A stretch of 42,490 nt of DNA from Candidatus Zixiibacteriota bacterium (GTDB taxonomy: Bacteria; Zixibacteria; MSB-5A5; UBA10806; 4484-95): the NCBI GenBank assembly GCA_029932605.1, contig JAOZPT010000003.1, positions 1 to 42,490 on the forward strand, in the 5' to 3' direction. The notes beneath the pieces are model-generated. The model had not been told where the DNA came from. It did not search any database and saw only the letters and a program-made list of their open reading frames with translations. Shown here one piece after another: positions 2,119 through 34,327 of this stretch (positions are counted from its first letter, which is position 1; each line of letters starts with the position of its first letter). The translations under genes and the position numbers were made by a program.

Positions 2119-2156
2119 TATACTTTTAACATGACAATTTTTCTGGAGGATAATAG

Positions 2157-3317: not shown

Positions 3318-3319
3318 TT

Positions 3320-3712
3320 ATGTCATCACCTAAATACTGGAGAGAAATGCCTCAAAGATATCGCCTTGAGGCAATCAAATGTAAAAAATGTGGCAAGGTG
3401 TTGTTCCCACCAAGACTGGTATGTCCAGCTTGCCAATCAAGAGAGTTCGAACAAACGCGAATAAACAATACAGGTAAAATCGAGACATATACAGTAATCC
3501 GTGTTGCGCCCAGCACCTTTGTCGACCAAGCTCCTTATATCGTTGCCATCGTCAATCTGGAAGGTGGGGTTAAAATCCTCTGTCAGGTTGCTGATTGTGA
3601 GCTAAACGAGTTGAAAATCGGTATGCCCGTGAATTTGGAGTTCCGAAAAATCCAGCAAGAGGGCGAAGATGGCATTATTTGTTATGGCTATAAATGTATA
3701 CCGAAATTATAG
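3320..3712 (+). CDS. DUF35 family Zn-ribbon/OB-fold scaffold protein
   Basis: 130 aa. CKKC...CPAC Zn ribbon followed by an OB-fold-like region. Starts 2 nt after the thiolase stop. Confidence 0.9.
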   Translation: MSSPKYWREMPQRYRLEAIKCKKCGKVLFPPRLVCPACQSREFEQTRINNTGKIETYTVIRVAPSTFVDQAPYIVAIVNLEGGVKILCQVADCELNELKIGMPVNLEFRKIQQEGEDGIICYGYKCIPKL

Positions 3713-3741
3713 ATAATATATAAAGGAATTGAGGGCATTTC

Positions 3742-5349: not shown

Positions 5350-5368
5350 TTAACAGCAGGGAATAACC

Positions 5369-6160: not shown

Positions 6161-6198
6161 ATATATTGGTGTTTGGATTTATATGATGGAGTAATTTT

Positions 6199-6702
6199 AT
6201 GTTTACAACAATCGAACAGTTCAAGGAGCTATGGAAAAAAGAATCTGAAAATACCAAAAAAATATTTTCGGCATTAACTAATGATTCCCTTAACAAGAAA
6301 GTAGCCGATGATCACCGGACTCTGGGACGAATGGCATGGCATATCGTGACGACTTTCCCGGAAATGATGAACCGCATCGGTCTTAAAGTTGAGGGGGTAA
6401 AAGAGAATGCCCCGCTACCAAAATCCGCAGACGAGATTACTAAGGCATACGAGAAGGTATCGACATCACTGATACAGCAGATCACTAAAAACTGGAATGA
6501 CGATACTCTTCAGGTTGAGGATGATATGTATGGTGAAAAATATAAACGTGGCGATTCCCTCTATATGTTACTAAGCCACGAAACCCATCACCGTGCCCAG
6601 ATGACAGTGTTAATGCGTCAGGCTGGCCTTAAAGTGCCGGGTATATATGGGCCAGCGAAAGAGGAATGGTCTCAATACGGTATGAAGGAACCAGAGGTTT
6701 AA
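6199..6702 (+). CDS. DinB/YfiT superfamily protein
   Basis: 167 aa. 'RTLGRMAWHI' and 'HETHHRAQMTVLMRQAG' give the His triad of DinB-family helical bundles. Confidence 0.85.
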   Translation: MFTTIEQFKELWKKESENTKKIFSALTNDSLNKKVADDHRTLGRMAWHIVTTFPEMMNRIGLKVEGVKENAPLPKSADEITKAYEKVSTSLIQQITKNWNDDTLQVEDDMYGEKYKRGDSLYMLLSHETHHRAQMTVLMRQAGLKVPGIYGPAKEEWSQYGMKEPEV

Positions 6703-6750
6703 GGTTGATTACAAGTCTGGGTCGTATTTGTTGATAAAGTAACAGATAAC

Positions 6751-8274: not shown

Positions 8275-8301
8275 AAGAATAAAAGCTACCGGAGATTTAA
8301 A

Positions 8302-8823
8302 ATGGAGATGGAATATTTAGTCGAAGGAAAAACATATACGGTAAAAATAGATGCCGATGAAAACAGGCAGGAGAAGGCTGATTGCTTTAAAGCCACCATT
8401 GGGGAAAAACAGTACCAGTTTAATGTTGCCCCAATTTCCGACAATTGTTTTTCTTTGCTTTATGATAACAACAGTCGAATAGCTTATGTGGCTGAAGCAG
8501 AGGGACAAATATATGTCCATATTGATGGCATAACGATAAATCTCGAAGACGCCGTTTCTCAACAGAAAACGTTTTCCAGAGACAGCCTGGAGTTCGGAGT
8601 TAAAGATGAGGTCACCACATCAATGCCGGGTAAAGTAGTCAAAGTTCTTGTTAAAGAGGGTGACAAAGTGCAGGCTAAACAACCTCTGGTGATAGTTGAA
8701 TCGATGAAGATGGAAAACGAGATAAAGTCTCTGACAGATGGTTTTGTTAAATCGATACATTTTGGTCCGGGTGACCTTGTCGAACCCGGCCAACCCATCA
8801 TCAAACTTGAAGTTGACGATTAA
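8302..8823 (+). CDS. Biotin carboxyl carrier protein with N-terminal BT-like region
   Basis: 173 aa. Biotinylation motif 'VESMKMENEI' and 'MPGKVVKVLV'. Has its own GGAG SD. Confidence 0.9.
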   Translation: MEMEYLVEGKTYTVKIDADENRQEKADCFKATIGEKQYQFNVAPISDNCFSLLYDNNSRIAYVAEAEGQIYVHIDGITINLEDAVSQQKTFSRDSLEFGVKDEVTTSMPGKVVKVLVKEGDKVQAKQPLVIVESMKMENEIKSLTDGFVKSIHFGPGDLVEPGQPIIKLEVDD

Positions 8824-8992: not shown

Positions 8993-9490
8993 TTGAGCAG
9001 TGATAAACAGGCACAAACTGTAAAAAAGCACAAGTTAAATTTCGCTTTCCGCGAAAAATTAGGCACCTTTGCCGAAGGTTTCAGACATAATTATTGTTAC
9101 CAGTGTGGGGCTTGTGTGGCTGACTGTCCGGCAAGCAACTATTCTAAGGAATTCAATCCACGTCTTATCATTCTCAAAGCTCTTCTTGGTTTCGAGGATG
9201 AGCTTATCAAACCCGATTCGGAGATATGGAACTGCACCAACTGCTATACCTGCTCGGAAAGATGTCCGCAGGATGTTCGACCTGTCGATGTCATCATTGC
9301 CCTGAAAAACATGTGTTATAGTGAGGGCAAGGCGCCGGAACTAATAGGCCACATTTCCGATACTGTCCTAGTAACCGGCGTCACTACCAAAATTACCTCA
9401 CTGTCTGAAAGACGCCGGCAGGAGCTTGGACTTCCCCCTATTAAAGGTTATCCGGTTGATGAAATCAAAAAGATTATCGAGGCTGATTGA
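8993..9490 (+). CDS. hdrC: Heterodisulfide reductase subunit C (2x[4Fe-4S])
   Basis: 'CYQCGACVADCP' and 'WNCTNCYTCSERCPQDV'. TTG start with a GGGAG SD. Directly upstream of HdrB. Confidence 0.88.
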   Translation: MSSDKQAQTVKKHKLNFAFREKLGTFAEGFRHNYCYQCGACVADCPASNYSKEFNPRLIILKALLGFEDELIKPDSEIWNCTNCYTCSERCPQDVRPVDVIIALKNMCYSEGKAPELIGHISDTVLVTGVTTKITSLSERRRQELGLPPIKGYPVDEIKKIIEAD

Positions 9491-9491
9491 T

Positions 9492-10382
9492 ATGACTTAT
9501 AAATCCATTGGAAAATATATTCCATTTTTTGGTTGTATGATGACCACCAAGTATCCATGGTTCGAGGCGGCTGTGCGTAAGACGGCAGCAAAAATCGGTA
9601 TGGAATTAATTGACATCGATGGTTTCACCTGCTGTCCTGACCCAATCTATTACCAGGCGCGCGACAAGATGGAATGGTACACAATCGCCGCCAGAAATAT
9701 ATCGCTGGCGGAAGACCTTGGTTATGATTTAATTACAACCTGTTCCGGTTGCACTGCTACCTTATCCGAGGTCAATTTAGCCTTAAAAGAAGACCCTGAG
9801 CTTAAAGCAAAAGTCAATGAACGCTTAAAGAAAATTGGCCGTGAGTTCAAAGGCTCGATAAATGTCCGCCATGCTGTTACGGTCATACGTGATGACTTCG
9901 GTTTCGAGCAGGTAACCAAGACTGTTACCCGTCCGCTGGAGGGGCTGAAAGTGGCTGTTCACTATGGTTGTCACCTTTTGAAACCGTCGCGGGTGATGCG
10001 TGTCGATGACCCCAACCACCCAACAATACTTGAAAACCTCCTCAAAGCCATCGGTGCCGAGCCAATCCATCATGATAAGACCATGTTATGCTGTGGCAAA
10101 GCCTGTATATCTGATGCTATACCGGAACAAATGATAATGGATATACTGGAAACGATAAAAAGCAGAGAAGCTGACTGTATGGGACTCATCTGCCCGACAT
10201 GTTTTGACCAATTCGATATAAGACAGATCATTCTGGGACGAAAACATAAAAAGAAACTCGATGTGCCAATCATCTATTATTTTCAGCTACTTGGGCTGGC
10301 ACAGGGGCTCAACACCAAAGATGTCGGCCTGCAAATGCATAAAGTAAAAGCCGACCAGATATTCGAAAAAGTATTAGCGTAA
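9492..10382 (+). CDS. hdrB: Heterodisulfide reductase subunit B (CCG domains)
   Basis: 'FFGC', 'TCCPDP', 'CSGC', 'HYGCH', 'CCGKA', 'CPTC', 'PIIYYFQLLGLA'. Likely start is the ATG at 9492, 1 nt after the hdrC stop, rather than 9426. Confidence 0.9.
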   Translation: MTYKSIGKYIPFFGCMMTTKYPWFEAAVRKTAAKIGMELIDIDGFTCCPDPIYYQARDKMEWYTIAARNISLAEDLGYDLITTCSGCTATLSEVNLALKEDPELKAKVNERLKKIGREFKGSINVRHAVTVIRDDFGFEQVTKTVTRPLEGLKVAVHYGCHLLKPSRVMRVDDPNHPTILENLLKAIGAEPIHHDKTMLCCGKACISDAIPEQMIMDILETIKSREADCMGLICPTCFDQFDIRQIILGRKHKKKLDVPIIYYFQLLGLAQGLNTKDVGLQMHKVKADQIFEKVLA

Positions 10383-12758: not shown

Positions 12759-15230
12759 TCAGGCTTTCACCTCTTCATTTTTTAAAGCTTTTTTCTTTTT
12801 GCTCTTGGCCTCTTCCTCGGTTAAGACTTTCATTGTATGCTCGATCTCTTCTTTAGTAACGGCTTTGACCATATCTTCCAGTTCGCGCATGACCTTGGCG
12901 AATTTCTGGCCCTCGGCGGCGGATATCCATTCAAGCTGCAACCTTTCGGGACGGATACCCAGTTTTTCAAGTTTGTTCCACATACGGTCCATTCGTTTCT
13001 GTGTCCACTGCACAGCGCTGATGTAATGGCAATCGCTGAAATGACATCCGGATACAAGCACCATTGGCGCACCCAACTTGAAAGCATGCATTACGAATTT
13101 CTCGTCGACTCTGCCGGAGCACATTGTCCTTATCAGTCTGCATGTGGGAGGATACTGCAATCTTGAGGTTCCAGCCATATCACCACCGGCATAACTGCAC
13201 CAGTTGCAGGCGAATGTCACAAGATGTTTGTGAGGCTCTACGGCCAGCAGAGCTTCGATTTGGGCCATAATCTGCTCATCGCGGAAATGCCGCATGGTGA
13301 TAGCATCCTGTTGACACTCCGAGGCGCAGGCACCACATCCGGCGCAGGCAGCCTGGATGACAATAGGTGCTTTCTTGGCTTTCCGATCAGGGGCTATGAT
13401 AGCATTATATGGACAGACCCGCGCACAGACACCACAATAGTTACATTTGTCAGGATCGATCTGAGAGGTGATAGCCTCGACCCTGGTTTTGCCGGCGTTG
13501 AGTAGAATGCTGGCTCTGGCCGCTGCAGCACCTGCCTGGGTGACGCTGTCTTTGATATCTTTGGGCGATTCTACACATCCAGCTATGAAAATACCTTTAG
13601 TAGGAGCATCAACCGGCTTAAGCTTGGGGTGAGACTCCATAACAAAACCATCAGAGGTTGTTGATAATGTCAGAAGCCTTTTGATAGTCTCACCATCGCG
13701 ACGAGGTATAACCCCTTGTGACAGAACTAGCATCTCAAGCTCATGTTTTTCCAACTTGCCAGTGGTCGTGTTTTCAACAGTTAAGATAAGGTTCTTGGTT
13801 TGAGGATCTTCTGTGACCTCACCCGGGATACCCCTTATATATTTAACACCCTCTTCCTTACTTCGCATATAAAGATCTTCGAAACCTTTACCAAAGGCAC
13901 GGATATCCATGTAGAAAACCTCAGCCTGAACTCCAGGGTAATGGTCGCACAGCAGAAGAGTATCTTTAACGGTGTTCATACAGCAGATGTTACTGCAATA
14001 TGGGTTACCACGGCCATCCCGCGAGCGGGAACCAACACATTGTATAAAGCCGATGCTCTGGGGAATCTTACGGTCAGTTGGTCGAATGAAATGCCCCTCG
14101 GTTGGGCCTCCAGCGCAGATTAACCGCTCAAACTCCATACTGGTGATAACGTTCTCGAAACGAGTGTAGCCATATTCATCGTATTCCGTAGGATCATATA
14201 CATCCATACCGGTAGCAACGATTACCACACCTACCTCGACGTTCACCAGTTTATCCTGGTCATCGTAGTTGATACATTTTTTCTCGCACGCCTCAAAGCA
14301 TTTGCCACAAGCAATAGGATTGTTGCCGAGGCAGTTTTCCATATTCAGTATATAAGATGACGGTACTGCTTGAGGAAAGGGTAAATATATAGCCTTACGT
14401 GAGGAGAATCCTTGTTGGTATTCGTCAGGCACCGTTACCGGGCAGACTTTGGCGCATTCGTCACAACTGGTGCACTCGTTGGGATCTACATAGCGAGCCT
14501 TCTTGCGTATTGCCACGTTGAAATTGCCCACGTAACCGGTAACTGATTCGACCTCGCTGTAGGTCATTAACTCGATATTTGGATGTCGACCGACATCCAT
14601 CATTTTGGGACCGAGTATTCATATGGAACAATCCATTGTCGGGTAGGTTTTGTCGATTGCAGCCATAATCCCACCGATTGTGGGTTCTTTCTCGACCAGA
14701 TAGACTTTGTGCCCACCGTCTGCTAAATCGAGGGCTGCCTGGATACCTGAGATGCCTCCGCCGATAACCAGTGCTGCCTTGGTAACCGGTACTTCCGCTT
14801 CCTGTTGTGGTTCCAAAAAACGAGCCCTGGCAACGCCACTTCTAACAAGGTCTTTGGCCTTCTCGGTAGCTGCTTCCTTTTCAGTTTGATGAACCCAGCT
14901 ACAGTGCTCACGAATATTTACCATTTCGAACAGATACGGGTTTAATCCTGCATCAGCTACACATTCACGGAATGTCGGCTCGTGGATTTTTGGAGTGCAG
15001 GAGGCTACCACAACACGATTGAGGTTATGTTCGGTTATAGCCTTTTTAATCTCATTTTGTCCAGGGTCAGCGCATGTATACTTATTCTGGACGACAACCA
15101 CAACATCATCCAGTGTCTCAGCGTATTTACTGACAGCAGTACAATCAATGGTGCCGGCGATATTCAGTCCGCACTCACAGACGAACACACCAATGCGCAA
15201 ATCCCCAGGTTTTTTTAATTCAACTGCCAT
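12759..15230 (-). CDS. hdrA: Selenocysteine-containing HdrA fused to C-terminal MvhD (about 823 aa)
   Basis: ORFs 14619-15251 and 12759-14603 are in frame across TGA 14619-14621: ...[27 protein letters not shown]... Contains the HdrA N-domain '[10 protein letters not shown]', FAD motif 'GGGISG', a ferredoxin insert, 'CVGSR...CSNICC', a C-terminal ferredoxin, then MvhD '[12 protein letters not shown]...MCSGRV...GCHFSDCHY'. Likely start is the ATG at 15230 (GGGAG SD). Confidence 0.9.
14570..14618 (-). promoter_or_regulatory. Bacterial SECIS-like hairpin 3' of UGA in hdrA-mvhD
   Basis: mRNA after UGA: upper stem UGGAUGUC-[GGUC]-GACAUCCA (8 bp) with the loop starting 27 nt after UGA. Lower stem ACUCGGU/AUCGAGU. 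Confidence 0.8.
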
Positions 15231-15314
15231 ATCTTTTCTCCCAGCCGTCAAGAACTTTTATTCTTGTCTTAGGCAGGTAGGTTGTCAAAATGTTACTCAT
15301 CTTTATCCAAAGCC

Positions 15315-16457
15315 TCAACCAGTTAAGGCTGAAGCAACTAAGTTCACGAAATCGGTTAATTTTATACCGACTTTTTCTGTTTCCTCTCCACATTCAGCAC
15401 ACCGAAAATGAATCTGGCATTTCGGGCAGGCGGTTACTAATGTATTTGCACCTGTATCCTTAGCCTCAATCAGCCTGCTGTTTTGAATCTGCTTGGAGGT
15501 AGTATCGCAGTTCATCCAGTTGGTGGTGCCACAACATATTGCGCCTTGCTTGTTGTGAGGCATCTCGAGGAACTTTATCCCCGGAATAGACAACATCGCC
15601 TCACGTGGTTGCTGGTAAATACCCATGTGTCTGCCCAAACGGCAAGGGTCCTGGAAAGTAACTTCCATATCAATGGTATTGAATTTTAATTTGCCGATGT
15701 TTTCGGCAACAACCTCGGCGATATGTTTAACCTTGAAGTTTACACTACCAAATCGTTCAGGATAGAGCTTTTTTAATACAAGAGCGCATTCCGGGCAAGC
15801 TGTCACTACAGTTTTGGCGCCAGTTTGCTCTATCTCCTTTAAATTTATTTGCCCAAGCTCATCAAACTGTCTTAACTGACCCAGCCAGTAAAGGTCATGG
15901 CCACAACATCGCTCGTTGTCCATGACCACTGGTTCGATACCGAGATAATTTAGAATTTTCACCGTATCCTGGGCAATTGAAATTGGTGAAAAATCGAAAT
16001 CCTTGGCAAAATAGTTTTCGTAATATGGTAAACATCCAACAAAATAAAGAACTTCACCTTTGGTTTTAACCTTTAGGTTGTCGTTTATCCAGCCAGTACG
16101 GCTTTGTTTGAGATTAGGTGAAGAGAGCATATCCATGATGTAGTGAAAGGTACCGCCATGTGATGGGTTACCCCATTTCCCCTGGCTGTATGCCTCAGCC
16201 CGAATATCCCGCATATATTCGGAATACCTGACATCCACAGGACAACGCTGTGAACACAGCTGACAGGTTAAGCAGGACCATAAGAGATTGTCGGAGATAA
16301 GTTCATTGCCGCCATAGAAAAGACCCTCGGCTACCATCCGTCGGGGGGAATAGCTGTTATTGAAGCGAGAAATGGGACATACACTGGTGCATTTTCCACA
16401 TTCAAGGCAGTAAAAGGCGCTGCTTTTCTTTATTTTTTCAGCAACATTTTTCATCAT
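15315..16457 (-). CDS. HdrD-like (Fe-S)-binding protein: 2x[4Fe-4S] plus two CCG domains
   Basis: 'CLECGKCTSVCP', 'CLTCQLCSQRCP', 'FVGC', 'CCGHD', 'ACPEC', 'QDPCRLGR', 'CCGTT', 'ACPKC'. Confidence 0.85.
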   Translation of the reverse strand: MMKNVAEKIKKSSAFYCLECGKCTSVCPISRFNNSYSPRRMVAEGLFYGGNELISDNLLWSCLTCQLCSQRCPVDVRYSEYMRDIRAEAYSQGKWGNPSHGGTFHYIMDMLSSPNLKQSRTGWINDNLKVKTKGEVLYFVGCLPYYENYFAKDFDFSPISIAQDTVKILNYLGIEPVVMDNERCCGHDLYWLGQLRQFDELGQINLKEIEQTGAKTVVTACPECALVLKKLYPERFGSVNFKVKHIAEVVAENIGKLKFNTIDMEVTFQDPCRLGRHMGIYQQPREAMLSIPGIKFLEMPHNKQGAICCGTTNWMNCDTTSKQIQNSRLIEAKDTGANTLVTACPKCQIHFRCAECGEETEKVGIKLTDFVNLVASALTG

Positions 16458-16921
16458 TTATTAAATTTTGGTTTATGATTTAATGGGCTTGGTCCCAGAG
16501 CGGTTATCTGTTCGGTAAATTCGTTAATGACCTGAGCCCAACGTGGTCCCTCTGCCGCTGAAATCCATTCCAGGCGTATGCGTTTCTCATCCAACCCCAA
16601 AGTCTTCACTAACTCTTTAGTTTTTTCAAATTGGTCTACAGCCTTATAGTTGCCAAATATATAATGGCAATCACCAAAATGACAGCCTGAAACGAGAACA
16701 CCATCTGCCCCAAGTTTCAGGGCTTTAAGTATAAAAGCGGGAGTGACCCGACCAGAACACATGGTTCGAATAATTCTAAAATTGGGCGAATGTTGAATCC
16801 TGTTTACACCAGCGGTGTCAGCACCTGCATAACTGCACCAGTTGCAGGCAAAAGCGACAATATTGGGCACGAATTTTTTATTCGTTGATTTCTTTTTAGT
16901 CTTTGGTTTTTTCACAGGCAT
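16454..16921 (-). CDS. mvhD: MvhD-type [2Fe-2S] subunit
   Basis: '[12 protein letters not shown]', 'MCSGRV', '[17 protein letters not shown]', '[10 protein letters not shown]'. Overlaps the next gene by 4 nt. Confidence 0.9.
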   Translation of the reverse strand: MPVKKPKTKKKSTNKKFVPNIVAFACNWCSYAGADTAGVNRIQHSPNFRIIRTMCSGRVTPAFILKALKLGADGVLVSGCHFGDCHYIFGNYKAVDQFEKTKELVKTLGLDEKRIRLEWISAAEGPRWAQVINEFTEQITALGPSPLNHKPKFNK

Positions 16922-16924
16922 ATA

Positions 16925-19900
16925 TTAAGTCTCATCGGTTAATAAAGCTTCCATCATGGAATCGATCTGCTTGTCGGTGAAATGCTGTGCTTCGATTGCC
17001 CCGGTCGGGCACCAACTGGCACAGGTGCCACATCCTTTACATAAAGCCTGATTTATCTCAGCAACTTTTAGTCCGGGCACGATCTCAATCAATGATGGTG
17101 CATGGTATTCACAAATTTCCACACATCGGCCGCAGGCACGGCATAAATCCTGCTGAACAACACACGTAATCGGTTCGAGCATCACGGTATCGCGGGCAAT
17201 AAATGACGCTACCTTGGCGGCCGCGGCAGAACCCTGGGCAATGGAATCAGAGATATCCTTGGGCCCACTCACGCAACCAGCCAGGAACACTCCCTCGGTG
17301 GTCGTCTCAACCGGACCGAGTTTGGCGTGACGCTCCATGAAAAAGCCGTCGGCGCCTATAGGCAATTTTAAGATTTCATGAAGTTTGTCAGTGCTTTCCT
17401 TATTGGGCACCATTCCTGCCGCAAGCACTATATAATCAACATCTATTTCCAGAACGCGGTTTAGAGCAAGCTCTAAGATATCGACCGCTTCAGCCTGATT
17501 AGCGTTGCCGATTACCCTGGGCAATCTCTCAGATGTATACCTTATGAACCTCACTCCCAGAGCTCTTGCGTGGCGGTAATGCTCCTCGGCTTTAGCCCCA
17601 ACTGTGCGCATATCGCGATGCAGAACAGCTACATTCACACCATTCTCTCGCAGACGGACAGCCTGTTTGATGGTCGTTGGGCAGCAAAAACGCGAGCATC
17701 CGGGATTCTTTTCGGGATTACGAGAACCAACACACTGGATGAAAACGACGGTTTTCGGCGTCTTACCTTTTATTTTTAATGAACCTTTAGTATCATGTAG
17801 AATATTTTCAAGTTCCTGGTTGGTTATAACGTTTTCATATTGACCATAGCCGAATTCACCATTGGGTTTATATATATCAGCACCAGTCGCCACCACTATG
17901 GTTCCTACTTTGAAGTTGCCGTATGAGGTGGAAACATCGAAATTACCAACAAAGCCGGTTATGGAATTTATTTGGGTAGAAGGCATTACCTCAACTCGGC
18001 TAGCTCTAAGTTTTTCCACCATGGTCCGGGCAAGCTCAACCGCTAAAAGGTCAGCGGGATAAACTCTGGTCAAGTTATTTAAGTATCCGCCGAGACGGCC
18101 TTCCTTTTCTATAAGGTAAACCTTGAAACCCTGAGCTTCAAGATCTAAGGCGGCGCGCATACCAGCTACACCCCCACCAATGATAAGCACACTCTGGTTG
18201 ATTGGAATAGATTGTTTATGTAAGGGTTGCAAATGACGAGCCCTGGCTACCCCCATTCTTATGAGATCCTTAGCCTTCTGGGTAGCTATTTCCGGTGTAT
18301 CGGTATGCACCCATGAACACTGGTCACGCACATTGACTATTTCAAAGAGATAGGGGTTAAGGCCAACCTGTTCACAACTTTCACGGAAAATAGGTTCATG
18401 TGTGCGGGGAGTGCAGGCGGCTGCAACAATACGGTTGAGCTTTTTCTTGATGATCGTATCTTGCAAACACTTCTGACCATCGTTTGAACAGAGAAAAAGA
18501 CTTTCTTGGACAAAAACAACACCGGGTAGTCTCTCAGCGTATTTCTTCAAAGCGGCAACATCTAGAACTCCGGCGATGTTGATACCACAGTGGCAAATGA
18601 AAACGCCGATTCGTGGAGGGCCGTTGATGTCTAAAGGTGGGATTTCCTCTTTAACTTCTTCAATTCTAACTTTGGCAACATATTTTTCTGCCTCAGCCGC
18701 TGCCCCTGAGCCTTGGGCTACTGAATCAGAAATATCATTAACTCCAGCAGCACAACCACAAATATATATACCCTCTCTGGGGGTATGTAATGGTGAACCA
18801 TATTTCGCATCTGTTTTTAAGAACCCATTTTCATCAAGGTCAATGCCGAGAACCTCAGCAAGTTTTTTGTTCGATTTTGACGCTATTGCACCGGTTGACA
18901 ATACGGCCATATCGAATTTGATTCCGCCTATCTTCCCGGTTTCAACATCCTCAACATATACGGTCAAATCTTTTGTTTTGGGATCCTCAACTATCTTAGA
19001 CGGTCGCCCTCTGATATATTTCAACTCCGGGACTTCAAGCGAACGCTGGTAAAATTCCTCGAATCCCTTGCCTGCTGCACGCATATCGATATAGAAAACT
19101 GCCATCTCTTCAATTTCGGATTCGTGCTGTTTTACAAGCATACAGTCTTTGACCGCATTCATACAGCAGAATCGTGAGCAATACTGACAGCCAGCCTCTT
19201 TTCCCTCGCCTCTCGAACCAACACATTGAATAAAAGCAATTTTTTTGGGCACTTTTCGATCGGATGGCCTGATTATATGTCCCCTGGTCGGTCCCGATGC
19301 GTTTAACATCCTTTCCAGCTCCATATTAGTTAAGACATTATCATAAAGGCCATAACCATAACTGGAAATAGCGGTGGCGTCATAAACATCAAATCCGGTT
19401 GCTACAATGACTGAGCCTATATCAAGGTTAATCTCCTCACCAGGGTCATCGAAATTGATTGCGTTGCGGTCACAGCTATTAACGCAATTGTTACAAACAA
19501 GAAACTCACCATTAAGGCAGTTTTCCCTGTCTATGATATGGGTGTAGGGCACCGCCTGGGCAAAGGGTGAATAAATGGCTTTGCGTGCTCCCATTCCAAC
19601 CTCGAAGTCATTGGGTACTACAACCGGGCAATCCTCAACACACTGGCCACAGCCGGTGCATAACTCTTCACTTACGTAACGAGGATGTCGTTTGATTGTG
19701 GCCCGGAAGTTGCCTGCCTTACCCTCAAAATAGGTTAGCTCGGAATGGGTCATGATCTCAATATTGGGATGCCGACCGGCATCTAACATCCGTGGTCCCA
19801 GAATTCATATAGAGCAGTCCATAGTGGGGAAGGTCTTGTCAAGTTGAGCCATCCTTCCCCCAAGCGAGGGTAATTTCTCAACCAGATATACCTTCACCCG

Positions 19901-19990
19901 TGATGAGGCCAGATCTAAAGCAGCTTGAATACCGGTGATACCCCCACCTATTACTAAAACCCCTTTTTCTCTTTTTACCTGTTGGGGCAT
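16925..19990 (-). CDS. hdrA: Selenocysteine-containing tandem (double-module) HdrA, about 1021 aa
   Basis: ORFs 19805-19990 and 16925-19789 are in frame across TGA 19805-19807: ...[27 protein letters not shown]... Two FAD motifs (GGGITG, GGGVAG), two 'CVGSR...CSRFCC' motifs, an internal '[10 protein letters not shown]' domain, one ferredoxin insert and one C-terminal ferredoxin. Confidence 0.9.
19764..19804 (-). promoter_or_regulatory. Bacterial SECIS-like hairpin 3' of UGA in tandem hdrA
   Basis: Upper stem GAUGCC-[GGUC]-GGCAUC with the loop starting 27 nt after UGA. Possible lower pairing UGGG/CCCA. Confidence 0.75.
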
Positions 19991-20035
19991 AATGTAATCC
20001 TCAACGAACGATATAATGCAAAACTATCCTATAAT

Positions 20036-23370: not shown

Positions 23371-23940
23371 ATGGCTTTCCGGTACACTATAAGATTGTGC
23401 GGCGCTGGTGGTCAGGGGCTGATCCAGGCAGCACGGATATTAGCTGAAGCGGCAGCTATTTACGACAATAAAAACGCTGCCGAGAGTTGCTCCTATGGCC
23501 CCGAGGCTCGGGGAAATGCCAGTCGGGCTGAGGTGATTATTTCTGATGAAGCAATTGATTATCCGAAAGCCAAGGCTATTGATTTCTTAATGGCTATGAC
23601 ACAGGAAGCTTACGACAAATATATCAAGGACTTAAAGCCAGATGGTATTATTGTTGCAGATTCTTGTATTAAAAACCTTGGTAAAAGTAAAGAATATCGG
23701 GTTTTCTCAGTGCCATTCCTGGATATTGCTGAAAAAGAATGCGGCAACCTGTCGATGATAAATATAGTAGCCCTTGGGTTTTTCGCCGAGATCAATAGGG
23801 TTGTTGGGAAAAAATCTATACGGCAGGCGATTCTTGCACGGATTCCCAAGAAATCCGAGGATATTTATATAAAAGCGTATGAAGCTGGTTTAAGGATAGC
23901 CTCTCAACAACTTGATGAAAAAGGGGAAAAAAGAGGGTAA
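23371..23940 (+). CDS. Stand-alone second 2-oxoacid:acceptor oxidoreductase gamma-subunit paralog
   Basis: 'IRLCGAGGQGLIQAARILAEAA', 'SYGPEARGNASRAEVIIS', 'NIVALG'. Likely ATG at 23371. Confidence 0.85.
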   Translation: MAFRYTIRLCGAGGQGLIQAARILAEAAAIYDNKNAAESCSYGPEARGNASRAEVIISDEAIDYPKAKAIDFLMAMTQEAYDKYIKDLKPDGIIVADSCIKNLGKSKEYRVFSVPFLDIAEKECGNLSMINIVALGFFAEINRVVGKKSIRQAILARIPKKSEDIYIKAYEAGLRIASQQLDEKGEKRG

Positions 23941-24051: not shown

Positions 24052-27006
24052 ATGAAAGATCAATTGACACGTTTAACCGAGAGAACCGCCGCCTTAGGTA
24101 ACTACAACCGTAAGTATCTTTATATCATATCATCCAATATAGACAAATTAACCGCCGCCCTTGAGCAACACGGTAAACGTGATATGGTACATTTATGGAG
24201 TTATTCAACGGAGATACCCGGTGAGATGGATACGGTGCTGGAGGTCTCTACTGATACTCACGAGAGATTAGATTTCCTTGGTTGCTATTACGCTATCCAG
24301 TTTTTACAAATAAACTTGCACATGGTGGATATCGTCAAGTTGGAGCTTGCTTCAAGTTCGGAACGCTGGCGAACCGGTAAGAGGTTGATGCTTGAGGCTG
24401 GCCGGATGTTTCGAAATCTAACCAAATGCTATATGGAACGTTTGTTAGATATATTCCTTGATAAAAAAAATGCACCGGAATTTGTTATATTGGGAGTTGG
24501 CACGCGGGCTGACCAGGATGATATCGATTTGGGAATTGTTTATCGTGAACCTGGAGATTCCGACGCCCTTAACCGTGCCATCGGACGGCTTTCAAGCGAA
24601 ATGTTTAAGAAGGCAACACGCTTACATTTCCATCTTTCTGAACATGTTGGCCATCATAACCTTGCTGCCACCATTGAAGAATATGAGGAAATTTTGGAAA
24701 AAGGTATATACGATTTTGTCATAATCACCGAAATGCTTGGAGCAGCTACGATTCTCGGAAGTAGTTCCCTTTTTGAGGAGTTTAAAAATAGAGTGACAAA
24801 CTGTTTTTATTATAATACACGAAATAAGGAGAATCGTTACCATGAGGGTTATCTACGCGGTATACTTGGTGAAATCCATTCTCTTTTGACCCAAATGAAA
24901 CCGCCGGAGACGATAAATCCCAAAGATGATGCACTTCGGCCAATAAAAAGCCTGCTCTCAGCACTCAAACTTGTTTATGGTATTCATAAGGTAAATGCCT
25001 GGAATATAATAGATGACCTCAAGGTAAAAAATCCGCAGAGGGAACAGCAATATAACAATCTCGAACAGGCTCTCAGCTTCTTCGAATTGTTTCGGCACCT
25101 CTATCAGATAATGGTTGCCCAGGATGAAGACATTAGTTTGAACGAGCCGGGAATTGAGGACATGGTATCTACCATTGCCGAGATGATCGGTTTTGAGAAA
25201 AAAGGTGTGGTGACAGCTAAGGATTTCATGCTGGTGAACTATTACGAATTCCTTGAGAGAAGTATCCATGATATCGAGGTATTAACAGGTGATTTGAAGA
25301 AGCATCTTCATGAGGTCAGTATATTCAAACCGATTTATTCCGGGGATATCTATAAGTCGGTTGGTTATAAAGGGAATCTGGCGTTTGATTTTATACGGGC
25401 ATCGAGGTTTTTCAAAGGGACGACCTACTGGGATGATTTCCTAGAGAAATTAAGTGGAGAAAATGGTACTTTTTACAATGAGTTTATATCAAGTTTTAAT
25501 AAACTGTCTGTTAAGATGCGCCGTATTATCGGCCTAGGCTATGTTGCTGGAATCAAATACGAAATGACATCTGTCTTGCGATTTCTGGTTATCCTTGGGG
25601 AAAAAGCCAAGACCGATGAAGCCAAAGATACGTTTAACCTTCTCAGCCGGTTGCTCGTCGAGCAAATGGTCAAACTCCCGGGCATTTCAACCTCTCTGGC
25701 ACAAATAGTTTACGCTTATCCGGGGTTACTTAACAGCTTTTTAACACTTATTGATTGGGAAACTCTTGATAAATTTATGAAGATTGCCCGCATAAAACCA
25801 GCTATGCCGGAGCTTATCTCATTTCATAATCAACTCTTGGCACTGGGAAACATACATTACCAGAGCAGCCAGTTTTTTAAACGGCATTTCCGACCGGTTT
25901 TGAAAAAGAACCCCGCTTTCATCAAAAACCTTCATAACAATGATAAGCTTAAAGAAATTGCAGCCGGTCTTTACAGCGACCTGACTACTCTGCCCTCGTT
26001 GCGTCAACGTATCGAACAACTCGGTGATTATTACGACCTTGAATTTGTACGGGTAAGTTTATTGGCTATGAAGGGAGCTCCATGTGAGCTTACCGACGCT
26101 GAATTTACTGAATTTTGTGATAATTACACTAATACCTTGTATGGTTTCTGCCATCAGGATGTTCACCTTTCGTTGGGGTATTCCATGCACACACACGACC
26201 TTTTTGCCCTTTACGCCACCGGTGGCCATGCCCGTGAACAGGGTTTCGACGACGACTATGATATGATCGTCATCCTCGATTCATCTGATCCGGATGAAAT
26301 CGATTATTGCAACAAAATAGTGGGCAAGATGAATTCCGAGATACTTAAAAGAGGGATACTCCCTCATCACAGGTTCGCTGACCATTTCGGTAGTTACGTT
26401 GTGAGCTTTGCCCAGCTGAGTGATCATCTGGGCAGTCAGGACGAGGAGATTTTCATTGACCAATCCCAGATATTGAGTTCGAGAATGCTTGTGGGAAGCA
26501 GTAAGCTTGAGCAGAAACTCCAGCAGGAAATAATAAGCCCACACATCTTTTCACGTGGTCGGGAATATATCGACTATATGGTAGAGGAGATGCGATCACG
26601 CCATACCGAGACAGGTGGTGAACATTGCAACGACATTAAAGAGTGTTGCGGTGGTTTGCGCGATATTGAGATGTTGCTTTTAATGTATAAGGCAAAACAT
26701 AGAGTTCGCGATCCACTGTCGAGAAAATTCCTTCACCGGCTGGCCGAATTGGAGCCACGATATGCTGAGGAATTCAGGTATATAGAGAAACATTTAAACT
26801 TCATAAAAAACCTGCGCGACATTTATCGACTCAAAGTAGCCGCTCATAACGTCATCAATCGTGAGTACTTACCCTCGGTAGCCGCCAGTATGGGATATGG
26901 CGATGATGATAAAGCTGGAGAAAGTTTATATAACCACTTTTTAACTAATACCGAAAAAGCATGGAAAATTATCAATCAGCTGGTTGAGAATATAAAAATA
27001 AAGTAG
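24052..27006 (+). CDS. Tandem Pol-beta-type nucleotidyltransferase, GlnE/GlnD/DUF294-like
   Basis: 984 aa. Module 1: 'VILGVGTRADQDDIDLGIV' plus 'INPKDDALRPI'. Module 2: 'LYATGGHAREQGFDDDYDMIVIL' plus 'DIKECCGGLRDIE'. No HD or ACT domains recognised. Confidence 0.65.
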   Translation: MKDQLTRLTERTAALGNYNRKYLYIISSNIDKLTAALEQHGKRDMVHLWSYSTEIPGEMDTVLEVSTDTHERLDFLGCYYAIQFLQINLHMVDIVKLELASSSERWRTGKRLMLEAGRMFRNLTKCYMERLLDIFLDKKNAPEFVILGVGTRADQDDIDLGIVYREPGDSDALNRAIGRLSSEMFKKATRLHFHLSEHVGHHNLAATIEEYEEILEKGIYDFVIITEMLGAATILGSSSLFEEFKNRVTNCFYYNTRNKENRYHEGYLRGILGEIHSLLTQMKPPETINPKDDALRPIKSLLSALKLVYGIHKVNAWNIIDDLKVKNPQREQQYNNLEQALSFFELFRHLYQIMVAQDEDISLNEPGIEDMVSTIAEMIGFEKKGVVTAKDFMLVNYYEFLERSIHDIEVLTGDLKKHLHEVSIFKPIYSGDIYKSVGYKGNLAFDFIRASRFFKGTTYWDDFLEKLSGENGTFYNEFISSFNKLSVKMRRIIGLGYVAGIKYEMTSVLRFLVILGEKAKTDEAKDTFNLLSRLLVEQMVKLPGISTSLAQIVYAYPGLLNSFLTLIDWETLDKFMKIARIKPAMPELISFHNQLLALGNIHYQSSQFFKRHFRPVLKKNPAFIKNLHNNDKLKEIAAGLYSDLTTLPSLRQRIEQLGDYYDLEFVRVSLLAMKGAPCELTDAEFTEFCDNYTNTLYGFCHQDVHLSLGYSMHTHDLFALYATGGHAREQGFDDDYDMIVILDSSDPDEIDYCNKIVGKMNSEILKRGILPHHRFADHFGSYVVSFAQLSDHLGSQDEEIFIDQSQILSSRMLVGSSKLEQKLQQEIISPHIFSRGREYIDYMVEEMRSRHTETGGEHCNDIKECCGGLRDIEMLLLMYKAKHRVRDPLSRKFLHRLAELEPRYAEEFRYIEKHLNFIKNLRDIYRLKVAAHNVINREYLPSVAASMGYGDDDKAGESLYNHFLTNTEKAWKIINQLVENIKIK

Positions 27007-29204: not shown

Positions 29205-32129
29205 TTATCTTAATAGAAGCATCTTTTTAGAGCTGGTTCCTTCCTGGTTTTGCAGTCTGACAAAATACAACCCGCTGGCAACATTTATTCCCCTGGTATC
29301 TTTGCCATCCCAGACGATATCGTAAATACCCGGGTTTTCATACTCATCGACAAGCAATCTTACTCTCCGTCCCAGAAGGTCATAGATGTCAATTTTAACA
29401 GCTCCCGGTTTGCCTATGGAGTAACGTATGGATGTGCTCGGATTGAACGGGTTGGGGAAATTGCCGACAAGACCGAAGCTGGTCGGAATAATATCTTTTG
29501 CTCGCTCATCGACATCGGTCATGTTGTAATATTTGAAGATGGCGGCATCGGCTATCTCCTGAAGAGTGCTCAGATTATCTGCCCCTAGTATGGCAAAAGC
29601 TGCTTTGACATTTTCGCCAACAGCTATGTCAAATGGTCCAGTGGTTATCATAATCGAAACGTCCTCCGGGGTTGTAATAGCGGTGTCGGTAAAACCAGCA
29701 TTCATATAGGACCATTTATCAGCCAGAGTGAAATGGGGAGGATAAACCTCGTTTGCGTTTGACAATGCTTTAAATGAAATAGCGCCCTCAGGGTTAAGAA
29801 CCATCATACCCCGGTAGATATTGGTATAGTACTGATAGCCAAGGTTACGGCTTCTGTCAAAATTCGCTTTATCGTTAGCGACATCCCAGGGCATATCCCA
29901 ATCCTCGAAATGAGCAACTCTGACTCCCGTAAGGTCTTCCTGGCCGGTATTGGTAATATCATACTCAGTGATGATATATTTGTCATCCGGTGAATCCGCC
30001 CAAGCATAACTTTTCTGGCTGATCACGATACCCAAAGGTTCAAAAGCGTTTTCATCGTTGAAAACCGATGAATACTCTTGATCAGCAACAGGACCAGGCT
30101 CTAACTGGCCGATATCCGTTAACGGGATAAAATCATCACCAAGTATCTGGTTTTCATCCCGAGCACCGTTAGATACACGGGTGGGGCCATCACCAATTAA
30201 CAGGGCACCCTCAAAGAGATAGTTGGTTGTAAACCTAGGCGTCTTAAACCCTTTACCCACCCAATCTGGATTTAAAGTGGTTGGATACAAACCATACTGA
30301 CCAAAGTTGGACACGGTGAAATCAACATCTCCAATATCATGATTGGCAATACCCGGTTCGCCTAACTGGCCTATGAGAATCTGTATATCATCGGTCGTAG
30401 AATAACCATCACCATAGATCGCCAGCTCAAATGATATCCAGATACCTATGGGAGTATTCTCACTAATAGATATAGCATATGGCTGGGAGGAATTATCCGC
30501 CGAGCTATCCTGTTCTATGTTCCCAAAATAGGCTGAATCCTGAGTTATTGTAGCATTGGGATCGGTAGTCGAAATAATACTATAAACATTATCTACAGAA
30601 GTTCCGGTATTGGTCAAAGTAACAATCAGCTCGATATCATCGCCCGGGTCGGGATAACCATCATTGGGCTCAATGACCTCAAAACCGGTAATCAAAACAT
30701 TGGGATTCTCGAACGGAGGCATCAGGTCCAGAGCATCCCTGACATTGATAATTCCATGGCCATAATCATTATCCTCGCCAGGTGAACCGAGATCTACAGC
30801 TGTCTCCATTAATGCCCATTTTATTGTATCGGGTGTGGCATTTGGATTATATTGTCGTAGAAGAGCTACAGCACCAGCTACATGAGGACAGGCCATAGAA
30901 GTTCCACTCCAGCCATTCCATTGATAACCACCTCCAGGTACAGACGAACGAACATTAACGCCAGGAGCCACAACCTCAGGTTTAATAGTGATATCATCGC
31001 ACTGTGATGGACCTCTTGCCGAAAAATCGGCAATCGGATAACTTGGGGTATGGCCGTTAATAGCCCCCACAGAGAACGTGTTGTACGGGGATGTATTACG
31101 GCTGGCTGGTGCCCAGACGGATCCGTATAACGGGTCTCCATAGAAACGATTACCAGCGGCAAATACTACAACCACGCCGGCTGCCTCACAGCGGTCAATG
31201 AGGGTCCAACAATACTGGGGACAGTTAAAATCATGATAACCCCAGGAATTAGATACGACATCCGGCACATCATCAATAGTTTGTGGATCGCCATCAGGAT
31301 CAGCAATCCACTGGAAAGCTTGTGTGACACTTCCACCATCGACAACCGCTCGAGCGGCTATCCATTGTGCCCCAAAAGCAACACCGATGGTATCACCGGT
31401 GGTTTCACCGAGTCCGGTTAATGTACCCATGGTGTGCGTACCATGACCATCGTTATCGTATGGGAAATCGCTATGAGGATTGGTTGTATCAAGCCAGCAT
31501 TCGTCTGACGGATGGCCGTTATTACCCCGCCAGCGACTATATAAGGCTGGGTGATTGCCAGAAACCCCCGTGTCAATATTTGACACCAAACGCCCCTGTC
31601 CTGTATAACCTAAATCCCACATCTCGGGAGCACCAATCGCCTCAAGTCCTGGCTCAACACCAGAGGTTACAGGTGTATCCGCATTATAGGGGACTGGCTT
31701 AATTAAGTCAGGCTCTTGCCAGATATAAACAACATCGACATCGGAACGCCTGGCCACCTCATATATAACATCCTTTGATAATTGACCTATAACAGCGTTG
31801 GTTATCCAGAAACCTTTATATTCTCCAACCATTCCATCTTGCCTTGCCTGGGCTAAGTAGGCCAGTAAATCAGGTTGTGTTTCAGTAGCGATTTTCTGAA
31901 GAGATGTTATAACATATTGATGTCTTTCCTGGCGTGTTGAATTGGCCATTGTCATCATCTGTTTAAAAGCCGACACATCAAACTGCTCAACCATCATGAT
32001 GACGCATTCAACTTTATCGTGGTCATCCATTTCGGACAAACGTTCATATAACCTGCCATCAATACTTCCAGCAAAAGCGGGACCACAAAAGATAATAATC
32101 AATGTTGCAATCACTAACAGTTTTTTCAT
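29205..32129 (-). CDS. Secreted S8 (subtilisin-like) serine protease with propeptide and C-terminal T9SS-A/FlgD-Ig-like domain
   Basis: Signal peptide ending AFA. Triad 'NIDTG', 'HGTHTMG', 'GTSMACPHVAG' and oxyanion 'AAGN'. C-terminal 'NFPNPFNPST...WDGKD...ASGLYFVRL...KMLLLR'. Confidence 0.92.
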   Translation of the reverse strand: MKKLLVIATLIIIFCGPAFAGSIDGRLYERLSEMDDHDKVECVIMMVEQFDVSAFKQMMTMANSTRQERHQYVITSLQKIATETQPDLLAYLAQARQDGMVGEYKGFWITNAVIGQLSKDVIYEVARRSDVDVVYIWQEPDLIKPVPYNADTPVTSGVEPGLEAIGAPEMWDLGYTGQGRLVSNIDTGVSGNHPALYSRWRGNNGHPSDECWLDTTNPHSDFPYDNDGHGTHTMGTLTGLGETTGDTIGVAFGAQWIAARAVVDGGSVTQAFQWIADPDGDPQTIDDVPDVVSNSWGYHDFNCPQYCWTLIDRCEAAGVVVVFAAGNRFYGDPLYGSVWAPASRNTSPYNTFSVGAINGHTPSYPIADFSARGPSQCDDITIKPEVVAPGVNVRSSVPGGGYQWNGWSGTSMACPHVAGAVALLRQYNPNATPDTIKWALMETAVDLGSPGEDNDYGHGIINVRDALDLMPPFENPNVLITGFEVIEPNDGYPDPGDDIELIVTLTNTGTSVDNVYSIISTTDPNATITQDSAYFGNIEQDSSADNSSQPYAISISENTPIGIWISFELAIYGDGYSTTDDIQILIGQLGEPGIANHDIGDVDFTVSNFGQYGLYPTTLNPDWVGKGFKTPRFTTNYLFEGALLIGDGPTRVSNGARDENQILGDDFIPLTDIGQLEPGPVADQEYSSVFNDENAFEPLGIVISQKSYAWADSPDDKYIITEYDITNTGQEDLTGVRVAHFEDWDMPWDVANDKANFDRSRNLGYQYYTNIYRGMMVLNPEGAISFKALSNANEVYPPHFTLADKWSYMNAGFTDTAITTPEDVSIMITTGPFDIAVGENVKAAFAILGADNLSTLQEIADAAIFKYYNMTDVDERAKDIIPTSFGLVGNFPNPFNPSTSIRYSIGKPGAVKIDIYDLLGRRVRLLVDEYENPGIYDIVWDGKDTRGINVASGLYFVRLQNQEGTSSKKMLLLR

Positions 32130-32512
32130 TGTTTACCTCCAAACATTTGACAAATTTCAGGTCAATATTAAATATAATGTTATTCTTTATTTTGACAACC
32201 ACTATTTTGTCAAAAACATAAAATCAACATTATTATCCTTATCTTTATAATTTCTTCATCAAGATTAAGTAATTGTATATAGGGCACTATCATAACCTTT
32301 GTTTATGTGTGTAGGACGATTTTTACATTTGTTCGCGTTGATGTAAAGATTACAACACCAATCGACCCAAGTCTGATTTTCTGAATATGTTAACAGGATT
32401 TCATCATTTTAGTTTCACGGTTACATCCTGAAACTGCAGAGATAGCAGCGGTTCAACTTTGAAATAACACTAATTTAAAAGGCTTACACGGTTCGCCGAA
32501 TTTTCCTGAGGA

Positions 32513-34327
32513 ATGAAAAATGCAATTTTAAGATATTCGCTGTTGATTGTCTTCATAGCTCTTTTATCTGCCAACCTTGAAGCCAGGTGGATGGATGAGG
32601 TTTTAGTCAATACAGAAACCGCTGGCAAGCAGGCATCAAGAGGTTCCGATTGCCCATGGTCTTTGACCACTGGTCCTGATGGACGGGTCCATGTGGTCTG
32701 GGAGGATCGCCGTGTCGGAAGAGAATTAAATATCTATTACCGCGGCAAGTCACCCTCTCCCGAATGGAACAATTGGGATGAGAACGATGTTAATATTTCT
32801 CCGGTTGATACCACTGTTTTAATGGGGCATCCTTCCGTGGGCATACTACATACAGGTGCTGTAGTATCAGTTTTCGTTGAGGAAAAACCGTTTCGCGGTG
32901 AGCTCCTTGGCTCCATTTTCAATCCGGATTCCTCAAGCTGGGACCAGCCGGAATTTATATCCTTACCGGGAGGATTTCACCTTACATTCACCTCCGCCGG
33001 CTGGCAAACAACCATTGCCACCAATGGCAATCGAGCCATTACATTCTGGCCTTACGTTGGCGAAGAGCCAACTCATTTTCGTAATATTTATTACCGCAGA
33101 TACCTGGACAATAACTGGGAAGAACAGGAAATCCCGCTTGAATTGCCAGAAGTCGGACTTGGTTATGATGCCAAAAACTTATCCTCGGTGTGGGGATACG
33201 AGGACAATGTTTATCTTGTATTTGCTGGTATGCTTGAAGGCTCCGAGATTTTCAGTATTTACTTCGTAAAAATAGACTTCGGCACTGGCCAGTTAGTGGA
33301 ATTTGAGAATATCACCCCAAGTTTTGATTCCAACCAAGAATACCCATATGTATGTTTGCAAAGGGGTGATAATCTGAACCATGATATAGATGATATATAT
33401 GTTGTTTTTCATGGGAACGAAAACGGTGGTACCGTTAAGATGGTCTACAGAAGAGCGGGCATGATGGAATGGTCTGATATATTTTATCCGGGTAACCCAA
33501 ATCAATCAAGCAGTTATCCGTGTATAGCAGCAAATCCCTTTGGAACCATTGAGCTTACTTTCGAACAACCTGGCAACCAGTCGGAAAGCCAGATATACCA
33601 TCAGACGTTTTTCCCCGGAGCCGATACTTTTGGAGCTATTACCCATGTTTCTCAGGGAACACATTTTTCCAAACGGCCCGTTATCGCCTGTGATATCTTC
33701 GGTAACGTTCATATCACATACATCTCCGACAGGCTCCATCCCGATGATCCGGGTAATGAGGAAGTATTTTACCGCATGTTCGATGCTGCTCCACCTCCGC
33801 CAACCAACGTTTACGAGAGCGGCGATACGGTTATCTGGAACTACCCTGAACTCCCCGATTTTGACCATTTCGATGTCTTTCTTATCAGTGATTCAGATAC
33901 CAATTTCATAAGTACAACCTCTGATACTTTCTTTGTCCATAATTTTGGCTCAGAAACAAATCTGGGTATACGGGCGGTTGACCTATACCAGCAATTTTCT
34001 ACAATATCCACCGAGTCAGTTCAGAGAGGAGCGACTCGCTCTCCTATCGCGCCTATGCAAATCACTCTGGGCAAAAACTATCCAAACCCATTCAACAGCT
34101 ACACAATTATACCTGCTTACAGTAATCATGGGAAAACTGCTATCGTGGAAATATACAATCTCCTGGGAGAGCTTGTAAAAAGAGTAAGGATTAAGAACAA
34201 CCAGACCAAGGCCATCTGGGATGGCACCAATCTCTATGCCAAACCAGTAACATCAGGCGTCTATCTCTATAGGGCTGTTTGTAACAACGATTGCTCTGAA
34301 TTCAAGATGATGGTCTTAATCAAATAA
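32513..34327 (+). CDS. Secreted hypothetical protein with repeated beta-rich (propeller-like) motifs and C-terminal sorting domain
   Basis: Signal peptide. Recurrent 'VHVVWED...IYYR', 'YLVF...IYF', 'VHITY...VFYR' motifs. C-terminal 'NYPNPFNSYT...WDGTN...TSGVYLYR'. Confidence 0.75.
   Translation: MKNAILRYSLLIVFIALLSANLEARWMDEVLVNTETAGKQASRGSDCPWSLTTGPDGRVHVVWEDRRVGRELNIYYRGKSPSPEWNNWDENDVNISPVDTTVLMGHPSVGILHTGAVVSVFVEEKPFRGELLGSIFNPDSSSWDQPEFISLPGGFHLTFTSAGWQTTIATNGNRAITFWPYVGEEPTHFRNIYYRRYLDNNWEEQEIPLELPEVGLGYDAKNLSSVWGYEDNVYLVFAGMLEGSEIFSIYFVKIDFGTGQLVEFENITPSFDSNQEYPYVCLQRGDNLNHDIDDIYVVFHGNENGGTVKMVYRRAGMMEWSDIFYPGNPNQSSSYPCIAANPFGTIELTFEQPGNQSESQIYHQTFFPGADTFGAITHVSQGTHFSKRPVIACDIFGNVHITYISDRLHPDDPGNEEVFYRMFDAAPPPPTNVYESGDTVIWNYPELPDFDHFDVFLISDSDTNFISTTSDTFFVHNFGSETNLGIRAVDLYQQFSTISTESVQRGATRSPIAPMQITLGKNYPNPFNSYTIIPAYSNHGKTAIVEIYNLLGELVKRVRIKNNQTKAIWDGTNLYAKPVTSGVYLYRAVCNNDCSEFKMMVLIK

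Follow-up and report, generated by a model that had tools for sequence, protein, structure and literature searches.

The stretch of DNA analysed here (the window) comprises positions 1 to 42,490 of contig JAOZPT010000003.1 from a Candidatus Zixiibacteriota bacterium (assembly GCA_029932605.1), and it carries at 24052..27006 (+) a gene for a protein of 984 residues, hereafter P0001, recognised as a tandem GlnE-fold nucleotidyltransferase from its open reading frame (ORF), its homologues, an AlphaFold model and Foldseek matches. On the same strand, 111 bp upstream, lies a gene (23371..23940, +; PF01558; start most likely ATG 23371, as in homologues) for a KorC-type protein, that is, a gamma, or coenzyme A (CoA)-binding domain III, subunit. 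This gamma, called orphan in the preliminary description of the locus, is a surplus copy, the genome holding five gamma against four alpha genes, and it is a candidate substrate or adaptor of the enzyme. Because the usual glutamine synthetase (GS) target is lacking and the enzyme travels with a surplus gamma of 2-oxoglutarate:ferredoxin oxidoreductase (KOR), the combination of a GlnE-like enzyme with a surplus, often damaged gamma suggests a covalent switch, so far undescribed, acting on anaerobic carbon metabolism.

The structural evidence on P0001 agrees with the layout first proposed for it, two nucleotidyltransferase-plus-helical modules arranged as in GlnE. In the AlphaFold model (mean predicted local distance difference test score, 89), the top Foldseek matches are the two Escherichia coli GlnE domains (E 3e-8 and 5e-8), with the Legionella protein DrrA next, and these three are the clear structural matches (Z 22-32). 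Module 1 (residues 1-422; 24052..25317, +) consists of a helical part, a nucleotidyltransferase core and a helical, KNTase_C-like part, as assigned from its secondary structure and its homology to module 2. Module 2 (residues 567-984; 25750..27003, +) is a complete GlnE-type half: residues 567-979 superpose on the whole N-terminal half of GlnE (1v4a; Z 32.5, root-mean-square deviation 4.0 over 390 residues), the second GlnE domain is matched as well (3k7d; Z 30.3), and residues 842-969 give the sole Pfam match of the protein, PF08335, in a scan of the 33 ORFs of the window. The central helical-repeat region (approximately residues 424-605; 25321..25866, +), a candidate regulatory or docking region, shows no match to the GlnE halves and only HEAT/ARM-like structural matches (Z<=8.8), maybe just a common arrangement. 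With an hG[GS]..DxD core followed by a helical C-terminal domain, the protein falls in the GlnD/GlnE branch of the Pol-beta nucleotidyltransferase superfamily. The two modules are homologous (hhalign E 1e-33 between them), and either half aligns with GlnE or GlnD at 7e-17 at best, the GlnE and GlnD profiles being shallow. A PDB search with the single sequence returned nothing meaningful, and one with the family profile matched only 1v4a (E 4e-6); the NCBIfam models for GlnD and GlnE give P0001 48.7 and 17.9 bits, with cut-offs of 519 and 724.

The catalytic loops of both modules are strongly conserved, as measured over 59 members with identity down to 20%. In module 1 (G150..D154..D157-x-D159; 24499..24528, +), G150, D157 and D159 are each present in 58/59 sequences and D154 in 54/59; in module 2 (G724-G725..R728..D735-x-D737; 26221..26262, +), G724 and D737 are kept in 58/59, D735 in 57/59 and R728 in 56/59. 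Counted from first Gly to first Asp, the loop of module 2 has 11 residues and that of E. coli GlnD and GlnE 12. In module 1 the count is only seven, with the conserved Asp154 as an extra, and its loop is therefore four residues shorter than that of module 2 and five shorter than the E. coli ones, as had been noticed from the sequence. The Asp of the RVDMRLRP-type strand is a metal ligand in GlnE; H192 of module 1 aligns with this Asp and H772 of module 2 with H192, both positions being mostly His or Gln in the family. The four motifs quoted in the preliminary description were found, starting at residues 148, 290, 722 and 861, and the GKLGGxEL..SDxD signature is absent as described (no GKxGGxE occurs in P0001). 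Since module 2 scores nearer to the transferase domain of GlnD (E 2e-21) than to the GlnE halves (1e-11 and 2e-12), transfer of uridine monophosphate (UMP) is as plausible as that of adenosine monophosphate (AMP). A quick tree of 49 modules, unrooted and built with neither DUF294 rows nor an outgroup, places modules 1 and 2 of the family (support 97 in the Shimodaira-Hasegawa-like approximate likelihood ratio test), the GlnE AR and AT domains (99) and GlnD (97) each on their own side of a branch. Because the family halves group together, apart from GlnE and GlnD, the simplest reading of the tree is that the tandem duplication in the family was independent of that in GlnE. The family is real, uncharacterised and GlnE-like in design, yet outside GlnE.

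Its members are widely and patchily distributed. Of 7998 scored candidates, 241 qualify at E<=0.001; counted as cluster representatives at the stricter E<=1e-30, the family has 161. The 120 top-scoring homologues mostly span >=95% of P0001 (identity 38-100%), some being partial. They are recorded in Zixibacteria, Krumholzibacteria, WOR-3/TA06, KSB1, Latescibacterota, Calditrichota, Acidobacteriota, Tectomicrobia and Deltaproteobacteria, mostly annotated as "hypothetical protein", and the nearest relatives with a named source are for the most part Zixibacteria, in keeping with the origin of the window. Carriers account for 21/201 genomes of the host phylum, and three other phyla gave 23 strong matches in 151 genomes, 9 in 151 and 17 in 346; in the Planctomycetota-level sample no member was found besides G203 (1/346 genomes). 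The collection scans covered the best 80 stretches each, with at least 47 loci where 350 stretches matched and at least 77 where 306 did, the weak match G239/L152 being excluded from the counts. P0001 has no paralogue in its own genome. A search for shortened versions of module 1 produced 35 matches, many of them labelled partial or located on short contigs, and no stand-alone form was established.

The neighbourhood of the family was assessed in 158 loci, reduced to 96 clusters at 90% identity having >=900 bp upstream and to 18 clusters at 60%. A gamma gene lies within 1.2 kb in 105/158 loci, 69/96 clusters and 13/18 clusters, and kor genes lie within 8 kb in 77/96 and 15/18 clusters, so that the suspected link to 2-oxoacid:ferredoxin oxidoreductase genes is borne out. 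The arrangement varies: the family gene may be the last of korDABC, lie upstream of korABC, be convergent with kor genes or stand beside a lone gamma, korD-A-B-C followed by the family gene being the commonest distant layout; among newly fetched Acidobacteriota, korDABC is directly upstream in 8/16 genomes. All linked KorA/KorB proteins (77/77) have their best match in an operon on another contig of the P0001 genome, C28, between sucCD and the malate dehydrogenase gene (mdh), and among solved structures the linked gamma comes closest to KorC/OorC; the family-linked enzyme is therefore most likely a 2-oxoglutarate oxidoreductase. Nine of ten unlinked carriers tested hold KorC (>=57% identity) elsewhere, a figure not controlled for the commonness of KorC in general. 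The operon divergent from P0001 (korD-A-B-C2; 20036..22947, -), to whose position the preliminary description had pointed, was rejected as the cognate KOR: it is a paralogue of the family-linked one, its gamma falls apart from the linked gammas, and it occurs also without the enzyme. The adjacency to glnS, to which a meaning had been attached, is incidental, being confined to this window (0/157 other loci).

Two other genes recur next to the family. A conserved 245-residue nucleotidyltransferase of MenT/AbiEii/DUF6036 fold is encoded directly upstream in 39/158 loci (L044:1504-2232 and 38 others; 26/96 clusters), typically in loci of WOR-3/TA06 type, and was not found in the P0001 genome. In one clade (L133:751-1413, L139, L140) a DUF4254 gene is directly upstream and korC convergent downstream.

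The surplus gamma has a history of its own. It groups with KorC (support 94), apart from the gamma that belongs to the divergent operon, and surplus gammas form two separate clades of 37 and 7 rows (support 99 each), the second adjoining another branch of the family; both results come from one quick tree, which carries long-branch warnings. Within the 201 genomes of the host phylum, the surplus-gamma clade is present in 20/21 carriers and 0/180 non-carriers. The GxGGQG motif, which we take to be the CoA-binding P-loop of gamma, is intact in 41/41 operon gammas and 23/23 paralogue gammas, and in 10/35 and 0/7 surplus gammas of the two clades; six sequences were left out of these counts (odd rows L016, L112 and L125, and three gammas from other contigs of the P0001 genome). 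Judged by this motif, the CoA-binding loop is decayed in two separate lineages of surplus gamma. The AEAAAIY helix and the SYG.E.R loop are kept in both clades. Domain III is described as binding CoA through a P-loop in two reports (PMC8091585, PMC13768988). The pattern observed here fits a subunit freed from catalysis and retained for work with the nucleotidyltransferase. From their 111-bp same-strand spacing, the surplus gamma and P0001 may be co-transcribed; a promoter scan stayed at chance level (14 found, 11.6 +/- 3.2 expected).

We propose that P0001 is a bifunctional protein nucleotidyltransferase that would reversibly add a nucleoside monophosphate (AMP or UMP) to control the four-subunit KorDABC. 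Module 2, with its near-full-length loop and its K..GGLRD motif, would be the writer, and module 1, with its short loop and extra Asp, the eraser or a sensing site. Gamma would have been duplicated in this lineage, one copy staying in the kor operon of the tricarboxylic acid cycle on C28 and the other beside the enzyme, where its CoA-binding loop relaxed. The surplus gamma could then be a decoy subunit that couples the enzyme to KOR, serving it as a dedicated substrate or adaptor, and the tyrosine of its YG(P/E)ExR loop is, speculatively, the leading candidate site. The purpose of such a switch might be to choose between oxidising 2-oxoglutarate and sparing it for glutamate. That P0001 acts as a reversible switch on KorDABC, on or through gamma, we consider an evenly balanced proposition, target and nucleotide being candidates. 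A broader version is offered tentatively, and we regard it as somewhat doubtful: that anaerobes of several uncultured phyla switch KOR by reversible nucleotidylation, using a two-headed design that arose by its own duplication, and that at least twice a duplicated gamma became a non-catalytic decoy, modified to control KOR, as the equivalent of PII or OdhI in anaerobes.

A number of observations weigh against a KOR switch. The profile for the surplus gamma derives from copies next to the enzyme, neighbouring genes share their inheritance, and kinship among the genomes makes them non-independent; one carrier, G118, has the enzyme and lacks the surplus gamma, and the surplus gamma of the window itself keeps its GxGGQG loop intact. 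The candidate tyrosine is Phe in 5/36 surplus gammas and is also present in ordinary KorC (3on3), hence it is not diagnostic. No kor, hdr or sdh link was seen in 10/96 clusters, several of them with short flanks; one clade adjoins sdhA instead (7/8 loci), and two small clades adjoin hdr. In the other eight of the 16 Acidobacteriota genomes, whose members are divergent (25-33% identity), the fetched flanks contain neither kor nor hdr, and the neighbourhood counts stop short of the most distant members (20-27% identity).

Conserved tyrosines exist in the linked KorA, KorB and KorC as well, and none could be singled out as diagnostic, there being no unlinked comparison set. Co-folding is counted neither for nor against the switch: residues 141-966 modelled together with the surplus gamma scored 0.25 (mark 0.32), in a run without controls.

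The alternative that survives best is that P0001 holds no writer and eraser of a protein, its module or modules nucleotidylating a small molecule (e.g., a CoA species) or RNA, or one module being catalytic and the other ligand-binding. Aminoglycoside nucleotidyltransferases belong to the same fold class (Z 8-9), the loop of module 1 is short, His or Gln replaces the RVDMRLRP Asp in both modules, and in 39/158 loci the gene immediately upstream encodes a nucleotidyltransferase of MenT/AbiEii fold. Against this, the GlnE halves and DrrA, which are protein AMPylases or de-AMPylases, match far above the small-molecule enzymes, and both DxD pairs are conserved at about 98% down to 20% identity. We consider this alternative unlikely.

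The second alternative retains the reversible protein nucleotidyltransferase and assigns it to another redox enzyme of the locus (HdrABC/MvhD, the ferredoxin KorD or Sdh), with gamma, if involved, only a CoA or acyl-CoA sensor regulating it, as PII does for GlnE. The window contains candidates: an hdrA-mvhD-hdrD-hdrA/mvhD cluster (12759..20020, -; 5' end approximate) and an hdrC-hdrB pair (8993..10382, +) which in many relatives is convergent and directly downstream of the enzyme. The block formed by hdr and the divergent kor operon (the hdr-kor2 block), hdrB included, is found in all 21 carriers of the host phylum; hdr genes lie within 8 kb in 41/96 clusters, a count that may take in weak FAD-domain matches, and within 1.2 kb in 29; and one member (P0092, L108:7992-11303) is fused in frame, at its C-terminus, to an HdrC-like 4Fe-4S dicluster domain. 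sdhA is linked in 5/96 clusters. At 60% identity, however, the hdr link drops to 7/18 clusters versus the 15/18 of kor, entire clades (of 14 and 11 loci) show kor but, within the flanks available, no hdr, and six further genomes carry the hdr-kor2 block with korD next to hdrB and neither enzyme nor surplus gamma between them; a decayed CoA loop, moreover, would suit a CoA sensor poorly. An Hdr or other redox target seems to us quite unlikely, and control of KOR is preferred.

As for GS, the target of GlnE itself, the genome of P0001 (completeness 99.96%) contains no PF03710 match, hence no true GlnE, and P0001 is its sole PF08335 match; neither GlnD nor a canonical PII was found in it. Its only PII-family match is a divergent protein of 97 residues (G000:C82:85147-85437, L051; E 4e-8), encoded directly downstream of an efflux-type transporter gene (AcrB-like by eye). 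GlnE modifies a conserved loop tyrosine of GS, as stated in one report (10.64898/2026.09.02.748916). The genome has two GS, one split across two contigs, and at the Tyr position of solved GS structures the GSI-beta has Ser and the GSI-alpha Phe, so that on both counts suggested for checking, canonical glnE and GS loop tyrosine, the outcome was an absence. All 56 carrier genomes have a GS. True GlnE occurs in seven, the same seven that have a strongly scoring PII, with GlnE beside PII; PF00543 matches extend to only two weaker cases (one being the P0001 genome) and are absent from 47/56. The GS loop was read in 67 sequences from 49/56 carriers; four loci that the motif filter did not pick up (L222, L242, L243, L245) are outside this count. 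The GSI-beta tyrosine is kept in 7/7 GlnE-bearing carriers versus 0/14 read from GlnE-less carriers of the host phylum, and because of this distribution the tyrosine, as far as these loops tell, is tracking GlnE rather than the P0001 family. The 14 Tyr-less GSI-beta proteins show at least eight different loop sequences (G000:C87 and C101 = L049 and L050; L209-L221). GS may also be modified at a residue other than the loop tyrosine. That P0001 is a highly divergent stand-in for GlnE or GlnD on GS or a PII-like protein, the kor link being co-regulation at the 2-oxoglutarate node, would account for its GlnE fold and length, the ubiquity of GS in carriers, the loop Tyr in 13/59 sequences of GlnE-less carriers (mostly GSI-alpha) and the GlnD-leaning scores of module 2, but it is very improbable given the GSI-beta distribution, the lack of any loop Tyr in the 16 carriers with every GS match read (the P0001 genome included), the seven carriers already equipped with GlnE, the scarcity of PII and the absence of glnA or PII both among the 33 window ORFs, as first described, and among the annotated recurrent neighbours of the family.

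Several further features of the window and of related loci deserve mention. Both hdrA genes have an in-frame TGA in the same motif (19805-19807 and 14619-14621, -), are each read as two ORFs, a split that recurs in relatives, and most likely encode selenocysteine-containing HdrA. The genes at 1066-8823 (+) encode, in a row, HMG-CoA synthase-like, thiolase, ChsH2-like OB-fold, carboxyltransferase, enoyl-CoA hydratase, DinB, biotin carboxylase and biotin carrier proteins, a probable leucine/HMG-CoA pathway, and the divergent oxidoreductase paralogue may serve branched-chain 2-oxoacids. Positions 29205-34327 encode a subtilase (974 residues) and a 604-residue protein, both with C-terminal Por secretion-tail/FlgD-like domains. 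In the sdhA-adjoining clade (L072-L075, L080, L081, L083) the family gene is divergent from a succinate dehydrogenase/fumarate reductase operon, with fumarase near in two loci.

Should KOR prove to be modified in this way, a class of enzymes central to anaerobic catabolism would be under covalent on/off control; oxoacid:ferredoxin oxidoreductases are also central to CO2 fixation by the reverse tricarboxylic acid cycle. No report on the P0001 family, or on nucleotidylation of any oxoacid:ferredoxin oxidoreductase, was found in a literature search covering few subscription journals, and in the accessible part of a 2026 review on pyruvate:ferredoxin oxidoreductase the terms 'post-translational' and 'adenyl' do not occur. 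The present lineage offers the easiest test, with a two-gene cassette, a small candidate partner and a genome devoid of GlnE, GlnD and canonical PII.

Among known systems, the nearest structures are the GlnE halves, whose target is GS, and the nearest sequence relative is GlnD, whose target is PII. GlnE of E. coli (1v4a, 3k7d; PF03710 + PF08335) likewise has two Pol-beta nucleotidyltransferase halves, helical flanks, a central region and a similar length. P0001, in contrast, has no GKLGGxE motif, His in place of the RVDMRLRP Asp, shorter loops and modules on a separate branch from GlnE AR and AT, which agrees with its initial description as a divergent, non-bona fide GlnE; PF03710 is matched by 0/41 family members. 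The genomic setting differs as well, with neither a Tyr-bearing GS nor a canonical PII, and the family coexists with true GlnE in seven genomes. With GlnD (TIGR01693), module 2 shares the K..GGLRD motif and its nearest sequence likeness; the HD and two ACT domains that GlnD carries were not found in P0001, which has a second nucleotidyltransferase in their place.

The DUF294 family combines PF03445 with PF10335, often together with cNMP or CBS domains. The DUF294-like motif reported for module 1 stands as a clan-level likeness and fails as family membership: at E<=0.01, PF03445 matches 11/41 members and PF10335 2/41, all weakly, neither model matches P0001, and PF03445 is found nowhere in its genome. 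What is common to both is the clan-level pair of nucleotidyltransferase and helical domains, described in one report (PMC3710099); the family differs in its tandem architecture and in the lack of any cNMP or CBS family match in the 41 members. The AMPylase domain of Legionella DrrA/SidM (6yx5; Z 22.1 to P0001) illustrates that a GlnE-type fold may act on a target other than GS, although DrrA is a secreted single-domain effector on host Rab GTPases, a role of which P0001 shows no sign. Finally, the closest functional analogy to the proposed switch is the PknG-OdhI/GarA system of Actinobacteria, in which a small, dedicated and covalently modified partner controls 2-oxoglutarate dehydrogenase, according to one report (PMC9769921); the analogy is one of function only, since the proteins are unrelated and phosphorylation of a partner of a dehydrogenase complex is replaced, in our proposal, by nucleotidylation and a ferredoxin oxidoreductase.

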